Positions 532-61,402 of a DNA stretch of 64,000 nt are shown here, piece by piece. Source of the stretch: Patescibacteria group bacterium (lineage in GTDB: Bacteria; Patescibacteriota; Patescibacteriia; Buchananbacterales; UBA6539). The notes beneath the pieces are model-generated. The model made no database searches and was not told where the DNA came from. It saw only the letters and a list, made by a program, of their open reading frames with translations. Location of the stretch: contig JBAZMQ010000008.1 in assembly GCA_041649675.1 (NCBI GenBank), positions 344-64,343 on the forward strand, written 5' to 3'. Made by a program: the position numbers and the translations under genes. Position 1 is the first letter of the stretch. The number at the start of each line of letters is the position of its first letter.

Positions 532-647
532 TGAAAACCTCCTTAATTTTTTCTATTTTGTTGTTTAATCCATGATTTAGGGTAAACATTCATTTATATC
601 ATATTTTATTCTGATTGTCAACAGTTATTTTAAAAATATACAGATGT

Positions 648-826
648 CCTGCTCAAAATGGAGAGGTGCCAGAGTGGTTGAACCCCGCACTAAAACCCGC
701 GATTAATATTTAACAATATTAAATTTTGATTCGCACGAAATCGCCTTTGGCTTGCATTATTTAAAATTCAAAGATTTTTACTAGGTTTAGTACGGGGCAG
801 GTGTGACGGGCATGTCCCGCTTCAAA
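648..826 (+). repeat. tRNA-Ser-like degenerate unit A1. A tRNA 5' half (GGAGAGGTGCCAGAGTGGTTGAA, 660-682) is followed by a ~100-nt structured insert closed by the long-range stem CCCCGCAC (683-690) / GTACGGGG (791-798).
   Basis: Direct sequence comparison with unit A2 (927-1103) shows ~80% identity over ~175 bp, with compensatory changes in the closing stem. The acceptor 5' strand GGAGAGG is complementary to CCTCTCC at 1249-1255. Confidence 0.6.
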
Positions 827-835
827 TGGAGAGGT

Positions 836-878
836 GGCCCCGCCTACGGTCGCCCGAGGCGACCTTCGGCGGGCAGGC
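836..878. repeat. GC-rich nested-hairpin mini-element (CCCGCC-TACGGTCGCC-CGA-GGCGACC-TTC-GGCGGG) inserted just after a third tRNA-like start (GGAGAGGTGGCC, 826-837).
   Basis: A perfect nested inverted repeat in an AT-rich context. Homologous copies lie at 61368-61402 (after 5S) and partially at 61139-61180. Confidence 0.6.
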
Positions 879-926
879 GAGTGCCTAAAAAAAAGTTGTG
901 GCAGGAAATTATAGACAAAGGGCTAT

Positions 927-1103
927 CGTGCTCAAAATGGAGAGGTGCCAGAGTGGTTGAACCCCGCACCAAAACCCACGACTAATTTTTTACGATATTC
1001 AAGCTTGATTCGCGCGAAGTCGCCTCCGGCTTATATTATTAAAATTTAAGATTATTTATAGGTTTGGTGCGGGGCAGGTGCGACGGTTCATCCCGCATAA
1101 AAC
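927..1103 (+). repeat. tRNA-Ser-like degenerate unit A2. It carries the same tRNA 5' half (939-961) and a structured insert closed by CCCCGCAC (962-969) / GGTGCGGGG (1066-1074).
   Basis: It is a tandem copy of A1. Its 3' end, GACGGT (1082-1087), together with CTCGAACACCGT (1203-1214), would reconstitute the Ser(CGA) anticodon stem-loop. Confidence 0.6.
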
Positions 1104-1188
1104 GGAAGGGTGACAGAGTGGTCGAATGTGACGGTCTCGAACACCGTTATCCCGCAAGGGATCGTGGGTTCGAATCCCACCCCTTCCG
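1104..1188 (+). tRNA. tRNA-Ser (anticodon CGA), class II with long variable arm
   Basis: The cloverleaf reads: acceptor GGAAGGG/CCCTTCC; anticodon stem ACGGT/ACCGT with loop CTCGAAC; variable arm TTATCCCGCAAGGGAT; T-arm CGTGGGTTCGAATCCCAC; discriminator G. It is flanked by a perfect 13-bp inverted repeat, TCCCGCATAAAAC (1091-1103) and GTTTTATGCGGGA (1189-1201). Confidence 0.85.
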
Positions 1189-1201
1189 TTTTATGCGGGA
1201 T

Positions 1202-1256
1202 CTCGAACACCGTTAGACCTTAACCGGTCTCGTGGGTTCAAATCCCACCCTCTCCG
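1202..1256 (+). pseudogene. 3' fragment of a second tRNA-Ser-like gene (variable arm, T-arm and acceptor 3' strand CCTCTCC-G) with a duplicated trailer
   Basis: AGACCTTAACCGGTCT plus CGTGGGTTCAAATCCCAC plus CCTCTCCG. The acceptor pairs with the GGAGAGG of units A1/A2. The trailer GTTTTGGGCAGGATCTAAAACACCGTT (1256-1282) repeats the trailer after the intact tRNA (1189-1215). Confidence 0.55.
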
Positions 1257-1344
1257 TTTTGGGCAGGATCTAAAACACCGTTTGGGCGCAAGTTTTCCAG
1301 AGTTCAAATTTTGTACAATGAGTACTGCCAAAATAATTTAGCTT

Positions 1345-40335: not shown

Positions 40336-40417
40336 TGCTAGTCTTGCAATTTTATTTGTTTTTGTTATAATAACCTTTGTAACTTTTGCGGGCTTGCCCC
40401 GCCGAAGTGAAACGTAG

Positions 40418-40515
40418 GCGGGTGTAGTTTCCGCCAAAGGCGGATCCGCCTCTGGCGAACAGTGGTAGAATGTCTCCTTGCCAAGGAGAAGATCGCCGGT
40501 TGGACCCGCACCAAA
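40418..40515 (+). pseudogene. Degenerate tRNA-Gly copy with a GC-rich double-hairpin insertion in the D-loop and a truncated T-arm
   Basis: GCGGGTGTAGTT[TCCGCCAAAGGCGGATCCGCCTCTGGCGAA]CAGTGGTAGAATGTCTCCTTGCCAAGGAGAAGATCGCCGGTTGGACCCGCACCA versus the intact gene 35 bp downstream. Confidence 0.6.
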
Positions 40516-40550
40516 GGAATACCTTTTTAAAATAGGCTTAACTATTTAGA

Positions 40551-40624
40551 GCGGGTGTAGTTCAGTGGTAGAATGTCTCCTTGCCAAGGAGAAGATCGCC
40601 GGTTCGAATCCGGTCACCCGCTCT
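40551..40624 (+). tRNA. tRNA-Gly (anticodon GCC)
   Basis: GCGGGTGTAGTTCAGTGGTAGAATGTCTCCTTGCCAAGGAGAAGATCGCCGGTTCGAATCCGGTCACCCGCTCT with a canonical cloverleaf and discriminator U. Confidence 0.88.
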
Positions 40625-40807
40625 GAGTAGTTAAGTTTTTTATTTTGGTGCGGGGTAAAAATCCGGCCTGTCCCGGCCAAAATAACCTAAAAATCAGATT
40701 TTTGTATTAACAAACAAGTCGCCAAATGTGGCGATTTTTTGGTTAAAAAAACCTGCCTTTGTGCGGTGCACTTGGGCAGGTAAGTTTATTTATTGTTCCT
40801 CCTGGGA

Positions 40808-42109
40808 TTATTTGTTTACCTCCATCATTGGCATTCGTTGGTTGAGTAACTCCAATGCTTGTTCGTAGGTTGCCGGCTGGTTGATTCCGCCCACTTTGAC
40901 GGTGCAGGAAAATCGGATTTGATCGCCGAAAGGAACACTGACTACGCCGTGTTCGTTTAGCATGTATTGCATGAACTGCTCGGCGTCGCCGAAAGTCTGT
41001 CCGCCGCCAGCCTGGGGCGCCCGGCAGAAAACAAAGAAGCCACCATCGGGCATTGAGACATCCAGGCCTTTTTGTTGAAGCACTGCGACCAGCCCTTGCA
41101 TCCGCTTTTCGTAATCGGTGTGAATTTTTGGTACGATCAATTTGAAATTGTTCAGGGCCTGTGCTGCTGCCCATTGCAGTGCCAGAGTTTGGCCCGAAGA
41201 TGAGTCTTCGTATTCCTTGCGGTAGGCCTTAATGATGGTTGGGTTGCCAACTACCCAGCCAACACGCCCGCCGGTCCAGTCCAGGGTTTTGGAAACGGAG
41301 TGTAAAACAACTCCAATATCCAGAAAGCCCGGAACGGATAAGACCGTAAACGGTTTTTGTTCGCCGTCAACCCAGCGTAAGTGGCAGTAGGCTTCGTCGA
41401 CAATCAATGCGACTTTGCGGCGCCGGCAGAAGGCAACAAGCTCTTCCCAAAAGCCGGGCACGGTGTCGTAGGCGCGGCCAGTCGGGTTATGCGGGCTGAT
41501 CAGGTAAATCGCGTGAAGATTTCTGACACTTTTCAGGAGTGAAATATCCGGAACAAAGTTGTTTTCCTTGTTGACCGGCAAAACCACAATTTTGGCGCCC
41601 AGCTTGGCTGCTTGGGTGCCAAAAACCGGATAACCCGGTGCGGTCACGGCCACGGAAATCCGGGGATTGGGCCAGCGTTGGTTGCCCGGAGCACAGAACA
41701 CTTTGGCCAGTGCGTCAAGGCTGGGTTTGATACCCCAAGCGTCCTGAACATTTATTTCCGGGTCCAAAACAAAAGCTTGAGCTTCAACGGTCAGATAGCT
41801 AAGACCAAAGACTTCATTGAGATGGTTGACTACGGCCTGCCGAAGTTCGGCTAGCCCTAGATCAGGATAGCCGTCAAAGTGGGGATAGCGAATTGCCGTT
41901 ACTACGGCTTCACGGATGATGCGATCAGGACCGTTGTAGGGTTCGCCGATGCCGAAGTTCAGCACCGTTACGCCGTGGTGAGTGGCAATATAAGCGGCAA
42001 TGAGGCGCTTGATTCGGCCGAACAAATACTCGGCCGTGTCATCGCCAAAGGTTTTGCCACCAATGCCTGGACCAAAAGCTCTTCGAATATCTACTCTTTG
42101 TTTACTCAT
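40808..42109 (-). CDS. PLP-dependent class I/II aminotransferase, likely LL-diaminopimelate aminotransferase (DapL-like)
   Basis: SVSKTLDWTGGRVGW (PLP-lysine region), 433 aa. Linked to lysA. GC-rich. Confidence 0.6.
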   Translation of the reverse strand: MSKQRVDIRRAFGPGIGGKTFGDDTAEYLFGRIKRLIAAYIATHHGVTVLNFGIGEPYNGPDRIIREAVVTAIRYPHFDGYPDLGLAELRQAVVNHLNEVFGLSYLTVEAQAFVLDPEINVQDAWGIKPSLDALAKVFCAPGNQRWPNPRISVAVTAPGYPVFGTQAAKLGAKIVVLPVNKENNFVPDISLLKSVRNLHAIYLISPHNPTGRAYDTVPGFWEELVAFCRRRKVALIVDEAYCHLRWVDGEQKPFTVLSVPGFLDIGVVLHSVSKTLDWTGGRVGWVVGNPTIIKAYRKEYEDSSSGQTLALQWAAAQALNNFKLIVPKIHTDYEKRMQGLVAVLQQKGLDVSMPDGGFFVFCRAPQAGGGQTFGDAEQFMQYMLNEHGVVSVPFGDQIRFSCTVKVGGINQPATYEQALELLNQRMPMMEVNK

Positions 42110-42153
42110 GTTCCGTTAGCCTTTCTGTAGTTACTAGCAAACCCGCAGTGGGT

Positions 42154-43443
42154 TTACTGGTTGAGTCCGATTTCGTTTTGCATCAGTTGTTCCAATGTTT
42201 GCCGCCGGCGAATCAGCAACAAGGTGCCATCATCGCGGACAAGCACACTGGCGGCAGCCGGAAACGAATTGTAACCGGCGCAATTCATTCCTTCACAGTA
42301 GGCGCCGGTGTCTTCAACAATCAAGAAGTCACCGATTTCCGCTTCAAGCAGTTCGCGGACAGCAATAGTGTTGGGGTCACCCGGAGCGGGAGTCAAAACA
42401 TCGCCGCTTTCGCAGCAGTGTCCGGAAATAACGCAGCCGATTTTTTGCCGGCTGTCATCATCTTCCTTAGGTAAAATTTCCATCAAGTGTTGGGCGCCGT
42501 ACAAAGTTGGACGGGCGACTTCGGTCATTCCCGTGTTGACTTTGACAAAGACTTGACCGTTGGGATCAGGCTTGGTGGAAACCACATCAACGACTTGAGC
42601 AATCAGGCAACCGGCTCTAGCAACCACGTAGGTGCCTGGTTCAATTTCAAGCTGCAGTTTACGTCCAGTGGCAGTGGCAAATGTCTGAAATAATTCGCTG
42701 ATTGCCTGACCGCAGATTGGTAAATCAATTGACGGTTCATCGGGCATACGGCCGATTTTTTGACCGCCGCCAAGACTAACTTCCTTCACGTCCGGAAGTT
42801 TTTTGGCAATGTTCAGAGCCATGCCAGCGACTTTGACCCAAATTTCGGGATCGCTGCCAGACCCAATATGGGTGTGGAGCCGCCTGATTTTTAGGCCATA
42901 TTGCCGGGCAATGGCTTTGGCCTCTTCAAGCTGCTCGTGCCAAATGCCAAAACTGGAGCTGGGGCCGCCGACGTTGGTTTTGCCACAGTGGCCTGAACCT
43001 AAGCCCGGGTTGACTCGGATGCTGATTTTACGGCCGGCCGCTAGGTTGCCAACCGGAACTCTCTTTATCATTTGACCATATTGCCGAAGCTGGTCCAAAG
43101 AACAGGCATTGAAGCGGACACCTTCAAGCGCTAGGACGAAAAGGTCAGCGGGTAGTTCTTGGCAGGTTAGCTGGATTCTGTTTGGCTTAATACCAGCCGC
43201 TAGGGCGCGGTGGACTTCAAAGCCAGAACTGGCATCAAAATGCAAATCAAGCTGGTTGACCAATTGCAGAACGGCTCGGTTTGGACAAGCTTTCATGGCA
43301 TAGCGGACCACTAGTCCGAAGGCCGCAGGGAAGTCCAACAGGGCCTTTGCTGCCTGATTTAACATCTCTTCCGAGTAGACATAGGTGGGCGTGCCAAATT
43401 GCTGGGCAATTGCACGCACTTGGTCAGCAGTTAGAAATTTCAC
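42154..43443 (-). CDS. lysA: Diaminopimelate decarboxylase
   Basis: Fold-III PLP decarboxylase with N-terminal VRYAMKACPN (PLP Lys), HTHIGSGSD, and a C-terminal CESGD catalytic Cys motif. GC-rich. Confidence 0.85.
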   Translation of the reverse strand: MKFLTADQVRAIAQQFGTPTYVYSEEMLNQAAKALLDFPAAFGLVVRYAMKACPNRAVLQLVNQLDLHFDASSGFEVHRALAAGIKPNRIQLTCQELPADLFVLALEGVRFNACSLDQLRQYGQMIKRVPVGNLAAGRKISIRVNPGLGSGHCGKTNVGGPSSSFGIWHEQLEEAKAIARQYGLKIRRLHTHIGSGSDPEIWVKVAGMALNIAKKLPDVKEVSLGGGQKIGRMPDEPSIDLPICGQAISELFQTFATATGRKLQLEIEPGTYVVARAGCLIAQVVDVVSTKPDPNGQVFVKVNTGMTEVARPTLYGAQHLMEILPKEDDDSRQKIGCVISGHCCESGDVLTPAPGDPNTIAVRELLEAEIGDFLIVEDTGAYCEGMNCAGYNSFPAAASVLVRDDGTLLLIRRRQTLEQLMQNEIGLNQ

Positions 43444-43506
43444 GGTTTGTCTCCTTCTGTGGTAGAATTTTTTTAAACCTCAAAATGGTAAAGGGCATAT
43501 TGAAAG

Positions 43507-51725: not shown

Positions 51726-52088
51726 TTATTTTTTTAGAGATTTTTCTAAATCGGAGATTTCTGTCCATAACATTGCACCGATTTCTTCGGCCAGTTTTAT
51801 TCCGATTGAATGGTCATTTTCAGTAATAAAATTTTGTTGTTGGGAAAAATGTAATAGGTATTTTGATTCTTTTAAGGAGCCGTAGGAAATTTCCAAAAAA
51901 TTTAATTGAACTAAAGGTTTTTTTCGAGCATAACCTTCAAGATAGTTCAAAATTATTGAAAGGGTTGATCGTCTCCATTGGGAAACGCTGCCATATAATT
52001 CTCCTTTAGGAAATTTTTTTGTCACCCGATAGACAAATTTGACGTATTCATCAGCTTTCATTTTTAATTTATTTTGGAATTTGCTCAT
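51726..52088 (-). CDS. Four-helix-bundle protein of the '23S rRNA intervening-sequence protein' family
   Basis: YRVTKKFPKGELYGSVSQWRRSTLSIILNYLEGYARK...EISYGSLKESKYLL closely follows the family consensus (…[30 protein letters not shown]…A.GSL.EL.T.L). 120 aa. Confidence 0.75.
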   Translation of the reverse strand: MSKFQNKLKMKADEYVKFVYRVTKKFPKGELYGSVSQWRRSTLSIILNYLEGYARKKPLVQLNFLEISYGSLKESKYLLHFSQQQNFITENDHSIGIKLAEEIGAMLWTEISDLEKSLKK

Positions 52089-52260: not shown

Positions 52261-52321
52261 GACTAATTGACAATTAGGCCAAAATTAGTAATTATTATAA
52301 GGTAAAAGTAATAAAAATGGG

Positions 52322-52398
52322 TGAGTGGTGAAATTGGCCCGCCTTCGCCAAAGCTACGGCGGGTAAATATACACGCATCTATTTTAAAATTAAAAATC
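52322..52398 (+). pseudogene. Degenerate 5' portion of tRNA-Leu with a GC-rich hairpin (CCCGCCTTCGCCAAAGCTACGGCGGG, 52338-52363) inserted in the D-loop
   Basis: GAGTGGTGAAATTGG[...]TAAATATACACGCAT parallels the D-arm GTGGTGGAATTGGTATACACGCAT of the intact gene. Confidence 0.5.
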
Positions 52399-52399
52399 A

Positions 52400-52486
52400 G
52401 CAGGCGTGGTGGAATTGGTATACACGCATGCCTTAGGAGCATGTTCCCGAAAGGGATTGAGAGTTCGAGTCTCTCCGCCTGCACCA
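52400..52486 (+). tRNA. tRNA-Leu (anticodon TAG), CCA encoded
   Basis: GCAGGCG-TG-GTGGAATTGGTATACACGC-A-CATGC-CTTAGGA-GCATG-TTCCCGAAAGGGAT-TGAGAGTTCGAGTCTCTC-CGCCTGC-A-CCA. Confidence 0.85.
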
Positions 52487-52529
52487 AAAATTGTAAGCGG
52501 TTCGCTTGCCCCGCACTAAAGATATATTG

Positions 52530-52660
52530 AGGCGCATGCTTGCCCGCCGAAGCGAAGCGGAGGCGGGCCTTAGGAGCACGTGCCGCAAGGCTTGAGAGTT
52601 TCCGCCAAAGGCGGACCCGCCTCTGGCGGGCGAGTCTCTCCGCCTGCACCAAAAATTACA
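52530..52660 (+). pseudogene. Degenerate tRNA-Leu(TAG)-like copy lacking the acceptor/D-arm 5' part, with GC-rich hairpin insertions in the anticodon stem (52542-52568) and T-loop (52599-52631), ending in CGCCTGCACCA
   Basis: CATGC[TTGCCCGCCGAAGCGAAGCGGAGGCGGGC]CTTAGGAGCACGTG...TTGAGAGT[TTCCGCCAAAGGCGGACCCGCCTCTGGCGGGCG]AGTCTCTCCGCCTGCACCA. Confidence 0.55.
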
Positions 52661-57731: not shown

Positions 57732-61037
<3,306 letters not shown>

Positions 61038-61216
61038 AATTGGGAGCGTTGAATTTTGATTTATTCTTTTTAAATTACCAGAAGCCAAGTATCCGAAATA
61101 CTCTGTTTTTGCCTTCGGATGCTTCCTTTTGGTGGTTTTATCCGCCTACGCTCTCACTGCGTTTGAGCTTCGGCGGATAAGGGCGAAAAATTGTTCATTA
61201 AAGTGGGTTTTAGAGT

Positions 61217-61325
<109 letters not shown>

Positions 61326-61367
61326 TTTGGAACCCACTTTTTTGTTTGGTCATCATAAGTAGGCTTG

Positions 61368-61402
61368 CCCGCCGTAGGTCGCCTAAGGCGACCGAAGGCG
61401 GG
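61368..61402. repeat. GC-rich nested-hairpin mini-element (CCCGCC-GTAGGTCGCC-TAA-GGCGACC-GAA-GGCGGG)
   Basis: Homologous to 838-873. Lies between the 5S gene and the terminator. Confidence 0.55.

Follow-up and report, generated by a model that had tools for sequence, protein, structure and literature searches.

Nested copies of a tRNA-Ser(CGA) gene in a Patescibacteria genome suggest serial overwriting by a target-restoring cassette

The stretch of DNA analysed here, below called the window, comprises 64,000 nucleotides of contig JBAZMQ010000008.1 of a Patescibacteria group bacterium, and the subject of this report is a tRNA-Ser(CGA) locus near its beginning, in which displaced pieces of tRNA-Ser genes surround a single intact gene. 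The locus is limited by an ABC-permease gene on the minus strand, which starts at 531 and is divergently transcribed, and by an open reading frame (ORF) at 1345. ARAGORN and Rfam both call only one tRNA in 600-1300, the tRNA-Ser(CGA) gene at 1104-1188, in agreement with a preliminary description that had named it the only intact gene. It forms a canonical class II cloverleaf with a long variable arm, a CGA anticodon and G73, has no encoded CCA, and scores 57.3 bits in Rfam against a gathering score of 29. The perfect inverted repeats reported around it are present, and measure 21 nt (1090-1110 and 1181-1201) when the 7-bp acceptor stem is included. The gene is thus the core of an innermost cassette at 1090-1201 on the plus strand, as are all pieces described below, with the leader ATCCCGCATAAAAC at 1090-1103 and the trailer (G)TTTTATGCGGGAT at 1188-1201.

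Repeat analysis and reading of the sequence reveal that the region 647 to about 1312 consists of copies of the two sides of a tRNA-Ser gene. Four 5' units, starting at 647 (A1), 815 (A1b), 926 (A2) and about 1091 (the intact gene), are followed by three 3' units, starting at 1135 (the intact gene), about 1201 (B1) and about 1269 (B2, decayed), and since all the 5' pieces precede all the 3' pieces the arrangement is a nest and not a tandem gene array. Each 5' unit begins with a 13-nt leader, TCCYGCWYAAAAY, and goes on with GGAGAGG.. or GGAAGGG.., while the 3' units run from the anticodon loop (CTCGAACACCGTT..) through the variable arm and the T arm to the acceptor strand. Both complete 3' units, those of the intact gene and of B1, end with the trailer GTTTTRKGCRGGA, which is complementary to the leader. 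A motif scan found six leader matches where 0.75 were expected, all six of them inside the tRNA-Ser locus. Between the A1 leader and the B1 trailer 18 of 20 positions pair, and by reading of the sequence the remaining two are G·U pairs in RNA of the plus strand, which is the tRNA strand.

The displaced 5' parts were delimited by repeat analysis and, for A1 and A2, by alignment. A1 (647-814) consists of the leader (647-659), tRNA positions 1-23 (GGAGAGGTGCCAGAGTGGTTGAA, 660-682), a palindrome-ended insert in the D loop (683-797), CAGG (798-801), the 5' strand of the D stem and anticodon stem (TGTGACGGG, 802-810) and CATG (811-814). A2 (926-1090), which was also folded together with B1 in ARAGORN, has the same plan, with the leader at 926-938, tRNA positions 1-23 (GGAGAGGTGCCAGAGTGGTTGAA) at 939-961, a D-loop insert at 962-1074 with the termini CCCCGCACCAAA and TTTGGTGCGGGG, CAGG at 1075-1078, TGCGACGGT at 1079-1087 and TCA at 1088-1090. 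A1b (815-925) is a truncated old 5' start, the third tRNA-like start of the preliminary description, here extended to 815-837; its leader TCCCGCTTCAAAT (815-827) is followed by GGAGAGGTGG (828-837), after which a GC-rich hairpin of 35 nt (839-873) truncates the unit, and CAGGCGAGTGCC and an A-rich spacer fill the rest. On the other side B1 (1202-1269) holds the anticodon loop to the discriminator (CTCGAAC...CCTCTCCG, 1202-1256) and the trailer TTTTGGGCAGGA(T) at 1257-1269; it matches the intact gene at E = 1e-8 to 4e-8, and the GGAGAGG of A1 and A2 has its pairing partner in the acceptor strand CCTCTCC of B1, as had been proposed. B2 (1270 to about 1312, CTAAAACACCGTTTGGGCGCAAG..GTTCAAATTTTG) is the oldest and most decayed 3' part, with 80% identity to TCTCGAACACCGTTA and 68% over tRNA positions 32-72, and has lost both the anticodon (now CTAAAAC) and the T stem. 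The decay grows outward, which fits with the innermost gene as the youngest. The outer halves, shells of pseudogenes, decay with age and collect small palindromic elements, such as the 113-115-nt D-loop insert and the GC-rich hairpin, and that these are nested generations of which the innermost copy alone is functional can be held with high confidence. B2, the leader and trailer on the layers, the nested order and the presence of the same architecture at other tRNAs of the window all go beyond the preliminary description. A scan for promoters and terminators in 500-1450 gave counts no higher than in shuffled sequences; the reverse complements of the A2 and A1 leaders (TTGAGC) form, with a nearby TATAAT or TAAAAT, sigma-70-like matches at 908-935 and 627-656 (minus strand) that point at the permease gene, and these are consensus matches only.

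The outer layers preserve an older gene. When 962-1078 and 1088-1201 are deleted, an 87-nt sequence is left that ARAGORN folds as a tRNA-Ser(CGA), in line with the Ser(CGA) anticodon stem-loop that the preliminary description had predicted from the excision, with a C x C mismatch in the D stem as its one flaw, and A2 and B1 are therefore the halves of a former gene. Together they are a second, older tRNA-Ser(CGA) allele, 82% identical to the intact gene. The acceptor stem differs by two compensatory pairs (GGAGAGG/CCTCTCC in the outer allele, GGAAGGG/CCCTTCC in the intact one), the D stem is different and the variable arm is unrelated, whereas the 19-nt anticodon arm is identical. Because of the compensatory acceptor changes and the different variable arms the inner gene is not a simple copy made in place; the intact tRNA with its flanking inverted repeat is an insertion into the anticodon loop of the older gene. 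The junctions are clean, with 3-4 nt between an old 5' part and the new leader and 0-1 nt after the trailer. An assembly artefact is ruled out by an independent ENA contig (L005), which reproduces the whole locus with a difference of one A in a poly-A run, and a Logan contig (L006) ends inside B1, as expected at a repeat.

RNA of 1079-1215 folds at -69.4 kcal/mol (z = -7.2), with the outer anticodon stem, the leader/trailer helix and the inner acceptor stem stacked on each other. This very stable fold, the cloverleaf that is restored by exact removal of the inserts, and an outer tRNA-Ala with all arms intact apart from the insertion at a related locus (L223, see below) would all suit a functional tRNA within a tRNA, in which the cassette and the D-loop insert were introns, removed for instance by cleavage in the helix and RtcB-type ligation, so that one transcript gave two tRNA-Ser. 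We nevertheless regard this as very unlikely. The outer layers are degenerate (the C x C pair in the D stem, B2, A1b) and only outer copies carry hairpin elements in their D, anticodon and T loops; inspection and folding reveal no bulge-helix-bulge, for which bulges of 3 nt at a spacing of 4 bp would be needed, the junctions being an asymmetric internal loop and a continuous 21-bp helix; and Patescibacteria are not known to possess a tRNA-splicing machinery of the archaeal or eukaryal type. The inserts of A1 and A2 have no Rfam match even at E <= 10 in a search of 540-1400, group I introns included, and their folding is no better than chance. Neither the intron-like inserts nor the spliced tRNA across 660-1256 that the preliminary description had considered finds support.

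In both A1 and A2 the D-loop insert follows tRNA position 23 and is closed by a 12-bp stem, CCCCGCACYAAA/TTTRGTRCGGGG. A1 and A2 had first been seen as tandem units of about 175 bp with inserts of about 100 nt, and of this the units and their closing stems stand, while the coordinates had to be moved to 647-814 and 926-1090, the inserts are 115 and 113 nt long, and the order is nested. The two copies, which lie 279 nt apart, are 89% identical over 198 alignment columns, and the two D-loop inserts are local duplicates of each other. Changes in the closing stem had also been taken as a sign of selection on RNA structure; one T-A to C-G switch is indeed present, but A1 has a C·A mismatch as well, two copies carry no statistical weight, and the folding energies of A1 and A2 are no better than those of shuffled sequences (z = -0.12 and -1.48). 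We also considered the insert as a decayed tRNA cassette and rejected this, since its interior, when locally aligned with each of the four tRNA units, did not outscore shuffled sequences (best p = 0.04-0.16 before correction) and Rfam gave nothing.

Three of the four tRNAs in the window have the nested or old-copy pattern, namely those for Ser, Gly and Leu. The tRNA-Gly(GCC) nest occupies 40387-40680. Here an older tRNA-Gly copy, with a stretch of 42-45 nt that is 98-100% identical to the intact gene (40551-40623), is interrupted by that gene in its T loop; the older copy also contains two GC-rich hairpins of 30 nt each, and its 3' acceptor strand is missing. Leader and trailer form an interrupted helix of about 40 bp whose G·U pairs are workable on the tRNA strand only. 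It is bounded by CCCGCACCAAA/TTTGGTGCGGG, inverted termini of 11-12 nt which the Gly unit has in common with the A2 D-loop insert, the termini of the latter being identical to the outer ends of the Gly helix, and the 11-mer has four exact copies in the 64 kb. A block adjoining the nest, 40800-43450, has a G+C content of 0.47-0.48 against about 0.38, and may be horizontally acquired; its minus-strand genes we take, from their translations, to resemble an aminotransferase and a decarboxylase. The tRNA-Leu(TAG) nest lies at 52320-52651, where old fragments flank the intact gene (52400-52486) on both sides. The 5' fragment is interrupted by a hairpin in the D loop and the 3' fragment by hairpins in the anticodon stem and T loop, and the last 21 nt of the 3' fragment are 100% identical to the intact gene. 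No leader/trailer helix is found at this locus. About 230 nt from its old 5' fragment there is a gene for a 23S-rRNA-intervening-sequence protein, a four-helix bundle (51726-52088, minus strand; Pfam PF05635, E = 9e-24).

Similar loci occur in related contigs, some with a nuclease gene and some without. The closest analogue of the tRNA-Ser locus is a three-generation nest of tRNA-Ala(TGC) without a nuclease gene (L223), where the break falls exactly at position 35|36, the leader/trailer helix is about 15 bp long, the trailer abuts the old 3' half, and it is the outer tRNA of the second generation that has all its arms intact apart from the insertion. A different layout, in which an old tRNA part is followed by a hairpin, a small ORF and a new intact tRNA, is seen at L198, L227, L167/L228, L197 and L239, and the small ORF of L198 is a GIY-YIG domain (Pfam E = 1e-10). 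In 722 kb there are 10 GIY-YIG ORFs, at least five of which directly adjoin a tRNA. A search with the L198 ORF gave 57 homologues, and the six that were looked up (51-82% identity) led to 15 loci with differing neighbour genes, none of them selected through the small repeat E1 that is described below. Fourteen of the 15 lie on contigs that continue beyond the ORF, and in every one of these an intact tRNA-Ser (CGA or TGA) begins a few to about 20 nt downstream of the ORF end. Old tRNA-Ser sequence stands upstream of the ORF in all six representative loci, as a 5' part in five and as an anticodon-loop remnant beside a hairpin in the sixth (L232); L239 also retains the old 3' part, and L234 has, at 1-600, two tandem cassettes of GIY-YIG ORF and tRNA-Ser(CGA) with an old anticodon-loop remnant and an E1-like hairpin between them. 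The related ORFs are 74-129 aa long (mostly 80-115) and comprise the catalytic domain alone; they have no NCBIfam match, the best being a group-I-intron endonuclease at E = 0.007, below the cut-off, and no significant relative in PDB (best Slx1, E = 0.6). On another contig (L190, 6370-6530) a tRNA-like gene that is absent from the ARAGORN calls, GCCGA|75-nt triple hairpin|TGTAGCTCAGG...GCATCGGCTCCA, is interrupted after position 5 and lies directly downstream of a GIY-YIG ORF, which itself follows a tRNA-Tyr.

Relics of attR typically take the form of repeated 3' tRNA segments behind an intact gene, B1 and B2 begin at the 5' edge of the anticodon loop, and the anticodon stem-loop is a classic sublocation of integrase attB sites. 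The nest could thus be read as scars of a phage or genomic island whose tyrosine integrase used the anticodon arm of tRNA-Ser as attB and brought a replacement segment, the bodies of the elements having been deleted later. The repeats are however directly adjacent, with zero element DNA between them, and the 5' halves are displaced as well (three 5' and two 3' parts), whereas conservative integration of a circle gives a tandem order and not a nested one. Gene calling over -3.2 kb to +3.5 kb gave an ABC permease, a nucleotidyl transferase, a binding protein, a hydrolase and unknowns, but no integrase, and the related loci have GIY-YIG nucleases instead, with one exception-like locus (L244) where a serine recombinase lies about 1 kb away. 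Integrase scars are consequently an improbable origin.

The helix that leader and trailer form outside the acceptor stem was surveyed in 60 Patescibacteria tRNAs by scoring the extension of the acceptor helix into the flanks. In 52 of them the extension is at most 4 bp, as in random pairings of leaders and trailers. It reaches 13 bp or more in five, those of the window Gly and Ser genes, L223 Ala, L197 Gln and L198 Ser, and all five stand beside fragments of an old copy. Six of seven nuclease-linked tRNA-Ser genes have helices of 10-14 bp, which belong to at least four unrelated sequence families and take in the stop codon of the nuclease gene. The helix, about 10-20 bp long and of a different sequence at each locus, is a hallmark of replacement tRNAs. 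As the pairing is kept across different sequences and the G·U pairs are strand-specific, the pattern points to a function at the RNA level. Stacked on the acceptor stem, the helix may be a processing signal that releases the pre-tRNA from a transcript starting in the old gene (with its promoter or leader) or from the nuclease mRNA. An attempt to use viral loci as a control for the frequency of old partial copies was unusable, since phage tRNA clusters cross-match.

The same helix, seen as DNA, is a perfect 21-nt terminal inverted repeat, and with the 12-nt repeats around the D-loop inserts, the CCCGCACCAAA/TTTGGTGCGGG termini common to insert and tRNA-Gly unit, and the clean insertions, it could suggest a non-autonomous transposon like a miniature inverted-repeat transposable element, made up of leader, tRNA and trailer with terminal inverted repeats of 13-21 bp, a preference for tRNA loops and a transposase encoded elsewhere. 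We give this little credence. No target-site duplication is visible at the junctions, there are no dispersed copies in the window or in the 246 retrieved loci apart from the termini common with the tRNA-Gly unit, and in the nuclease-bearing loci the ORF lies outside the repeats; and repeat sequences that are wholly different between loci while the pairing is kept, with G·U pairs on the tRNA strand only, speak for an RNA helix and not for a terminal repeat to which a protein binds.

E1, a small repeat that recurs in these loci, is a 30-nt double hairpin, TCCGCCAAAGGCGGAYCCGCCTCTGGCGGR, with the pattern T CCGCC AAA GGCGG A Y CCGCC TCT GGCGG R, and is found in the window at 40429-40458 and 52594-52623. 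Metagenome contigs contain at least 120 exact matches to it over 27 nt; among the matches listed, 80 of 121 copies are spanned by an ORF of at least 150 aa, at least 51 of the 80 in the one frame that reads SAKGGSASGG, and E1 looks like an in-frame insertion element of 10 codons. Degenerate copies retain both hairpins by means of compensatory changes (L227, L239). In every one of the GIY-YIG/tRNA-Ser cassettes an E1-type hairpin sits in the anticodon loop of the displaced tRNA-Ser, at 35|36 in L198, L227, L239, L241 and L244 and at 33|34 in L235 and L238, 9-60 nt upstream of the start codon of the nuclease, where it could confer target immunity, mark the end of the element or be the substrate of the nuclease. 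Palindromic elements of Rickettsia are likewise small repeats of a reduced genome, where they occur both in frame within protein genes and within genes of stable RNAs. E1 is alike in both kinds of location, but it is a double hairpin of only 30 nt, is spread across many Patescibacteria metagenome contigs, and has a fixed site in the anticodon loop of displaced tRNA-Ser beside GIY-YIG ORFs.

GC-rich hairpins as such are not specific for tRNA genes, an idea that we rejected: one similar to 839-873 lies after the 5S rRNA gene at 61368-61402 (61364-61402; CCCGCCGTAGGTCGCCTAAGGCGACCGAAGGCGGG), a related one in the 23S-5S spacer at 61140-61178, and E1 itself is mostly in ORFs. The 23S rRNA match nearby (57732-61034) spans 3303 nt against a model of 2925 positions, which makes an insertion of about 380 nt, and contains a 113-aa ORF on the minus strand (59946-60287). 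Scans of viral contigs with the E1 hairpin and the A-unit junction gave 0 matches, and a T-arm/acceptor pattern gave 105 matches there, nearly all of them ordinary tRNA-Ser genes with a few other stable-RNA genes, and is too generic. Supposed nuclease remnants that tblastn suggested in the Ser, Gly and Leu loci were artefacts, gene calls reading into E1 or a tRNA.

Local rearrangement alone could also be thought to have built the tRNA-Ser nest, with a long palindrome of leader, acceptor stem and trailer that stalls replication and a switching of template that duplicates in tandem the 5' block, from leader to anticodon stem, and the 3' block, from anticodon loop to trailer, and no mobile element at all. 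The near-identity of A1 and A2 at a spacing of 279 nt, the head-to-tail order of the 3' blocks with a period of 66-68 nt and an identical 15-mer in common, and the lack of a nuclease, integrase or transposase gene nearby are what such a process would leave. Duplication in place does not, however, produce compensatory changes and wholly different variable arms between inner and outer gene, and the nested layout recurs in other genomes and at unrelated tRNAs, where a nuclease gene often marks the junction and, at several loci, the break points fall in tRNA loops. As the sole explanation we find it unlikely.

The reading that we prefer, at a probability of roughly 55%, is that the tRNA-Ser(CGA) gene has been serially overwritten by a homing-type, target-restoring replacement cassette; a mobile insertion carrying a whole tRNA and successive events at a tRNA-Ser hotspot, both already among the possibilities of the preliminary description, are thus those that the evidence favours. 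The observations behind it are the nested anatomy, the differences between alleles, the recurrence elsewhere and the linkage to nucleases in related contigs. For site-specific cleavage of an allele that lacks the nuclease, with non-reciprocal transfer, the compensatory differences between inner and outer allele are an indirect indication. A cassette of a 13-14-nt leader, a complete tRNA-Ser(CGA) and a complementary trailer would land in the anticodon loop of the resident gene, and displace the old 5' part upstream and the old 3' part downstream. By analogy with the related loci, the break in a loop of the intact target gene would be made by a small GIY-YIG nuclease that stands alone, and repair would copy in the interrupted allele, whose cassette brings the new tRNA and may or may not include the nuclease gene. 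The supplied tRNA would make the insertion neutral for the host, while the old halves would persist as homology arms and as leader and trailer of the transcript and then decay, and a later cassette could invade the new gene and so give rise to the nest. We infer in this the activity of the nuclease, the homing step, the RNA processing and the mobilisation of the window cassettes by such a nuclease. Because the window lacks the ORF, the junctions are clean, and A1 and A2 are local duplicates, the nuclease may here have been lost or may act in trans, or else the unit of movement may be the minigene of leader, tRNA and trailer, with a contribution from local duplication.

Several points weigh against serial overwriting. 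Neither a GIY-YIG ORF nor a recognisable remnant of one was found in the 64-kb window with jackhmmer and tblastn, and a precise loss of an ORF of about 260 nt from every layer is hard to accept, given the clean junctions. At least one step is a local segmental duplication of about 279 nt and not an independent invasion, because A1 and A2 are so similar and have the D-loop insert in common. Homologue searches of the flanking genes brought up neither an allele with an empty site nor a close relative: for the permease next to the locus the best homologue reaches 46% identity, the downstream 196-aa protein has four genome matches of which none is syntenic, and the tRNA-Ser(CGA) of L001 is plain. 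The GIY-YIG sample was drawn from the homologues of a single seed, with a possible bias towards one clade, and for proteins of 80-115 aa with only a catalytic domain the sequence specificity is presumed.

Taking the cassettes and E1 together, we tentatively suggest a wider reading, clearly less probable than the serial overwriting itself. The minigene of leader, tRNA and trailer would be a hairpin-ended mobile module with E1 as its minimal form. A free-standing GIY-YIG nuclease, possibly one that recognises structure, would first break cognate tRNA genes, into whose loops (anticodon 31-36, D loop, T loop) minigene and E1 would be inserted. They would then make up an unrecognised class of bacterial selfish elements, widespread in Patescibacteria, which replace the essential gene that they destroy. 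Full-text literature searches gave no description of nested replacement tRNA cassettes, of the leader/trailer helix, or of GIY-YIG-tRNA-Ser cassettes in Patescibacteria.

If these readings hold, tRNA genes of Patescibacteria turn over by invasion and replacement besides descent, which would bear on how streamlined, tiny genomes tolerate selfish DNA. Annotation based on tRNAs would be affected, as partial copies and hairpin-interrupted genes are missed or miscalled, and so would the use of tRNA loci as landmarks of integration. GIY-YIG proteins of about 85 aa that seem to be specific for tRNA genes would be a directly testable system, the conserved leader/trailer helix would imply an unstudied route of pre-tRNA processing, and E1 may be a general insertion element of a large and poorly known bacterial radiation.

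Among known systems, SegB of phage T4 is a protein of about 220 aa with a DNA-binding domain. As a homing endonuclease of the GIY-YIG type it recognises the sequence of tRNA genes, causes regions with such genes to spread and to be amplified, and drives the preferential inheritance of itself and the adjacent tRNA genes (PMC2330249; PMC13096335). The likeness to SegB of T4 and T6 lies in the free-standing GIY-YIG gene beside tRNA genes, and the tandem cassettes of L234 resemble, as an analogy, its segmental amplification. SegB is however a phage protein, while the Patescibacteria ORFs are chromosomal, 80-115 aa long and limited to the catalytic domain, whereas a SegB-like cassette would have a fusion of catalytic and DNA-binding domain of about 200-250 aa, which the related ORFs do not encode. 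A GIY-YIG ORF adjacent to the spread tRNA, the other mark of a SegB-like cassette, is absent from the window and present in L198 and in six of six homologues. With SegB the new gene is not left nested in the halves of the old one, and a leader/trailer helix is not described.

Integrative elements, such as phages, islands and plasmids of the pNOB8 type, insert in tRNA genes with a replacement segment, as in the model of archaeal tRNA disruption (PMC3293823). They have in common with the present locus the target, often the anticodon arm of a tRNA gene, the restoration of function by a carried copy, and the displaced tRNA fragments that form direct repeats, where fragments of older alleles mark past events. 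They differ in that they use tyrosine or serine recombinases, are kilobases in size and duplicate one side, usually the 3' one, while in the window a whole tRNA unit of about 112 nt lies between both displaced halves without a recombinase. Dada DNA transposons of animals are specific for genes of tRNAs and other small RNAs, inside which they insert with hotspots near the anticodon (PMC8869645), but are eukaryotic and encode a transposase, avoid harm through multicopy targets and not through a replacement gene, and form no nested generations. Group I introns occur in tRNA genes of Patescibacteria, are overlooked by standard tools and sometimes have homing endonucleases (PMC13011429); they are self-splicing ribozymes, typically of more than 200 nt, and leave the host tRNA functional, whereas the locus in the window has no group I match, its inserts are about 112-115 nt long, the copies that were interrupted are defunct, and a second tRNA is provided in full. 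With a nesting and a helix that apparently have not been described before, the finding belongs with the mobile elements that target tRNA genes and restore what they have struck.

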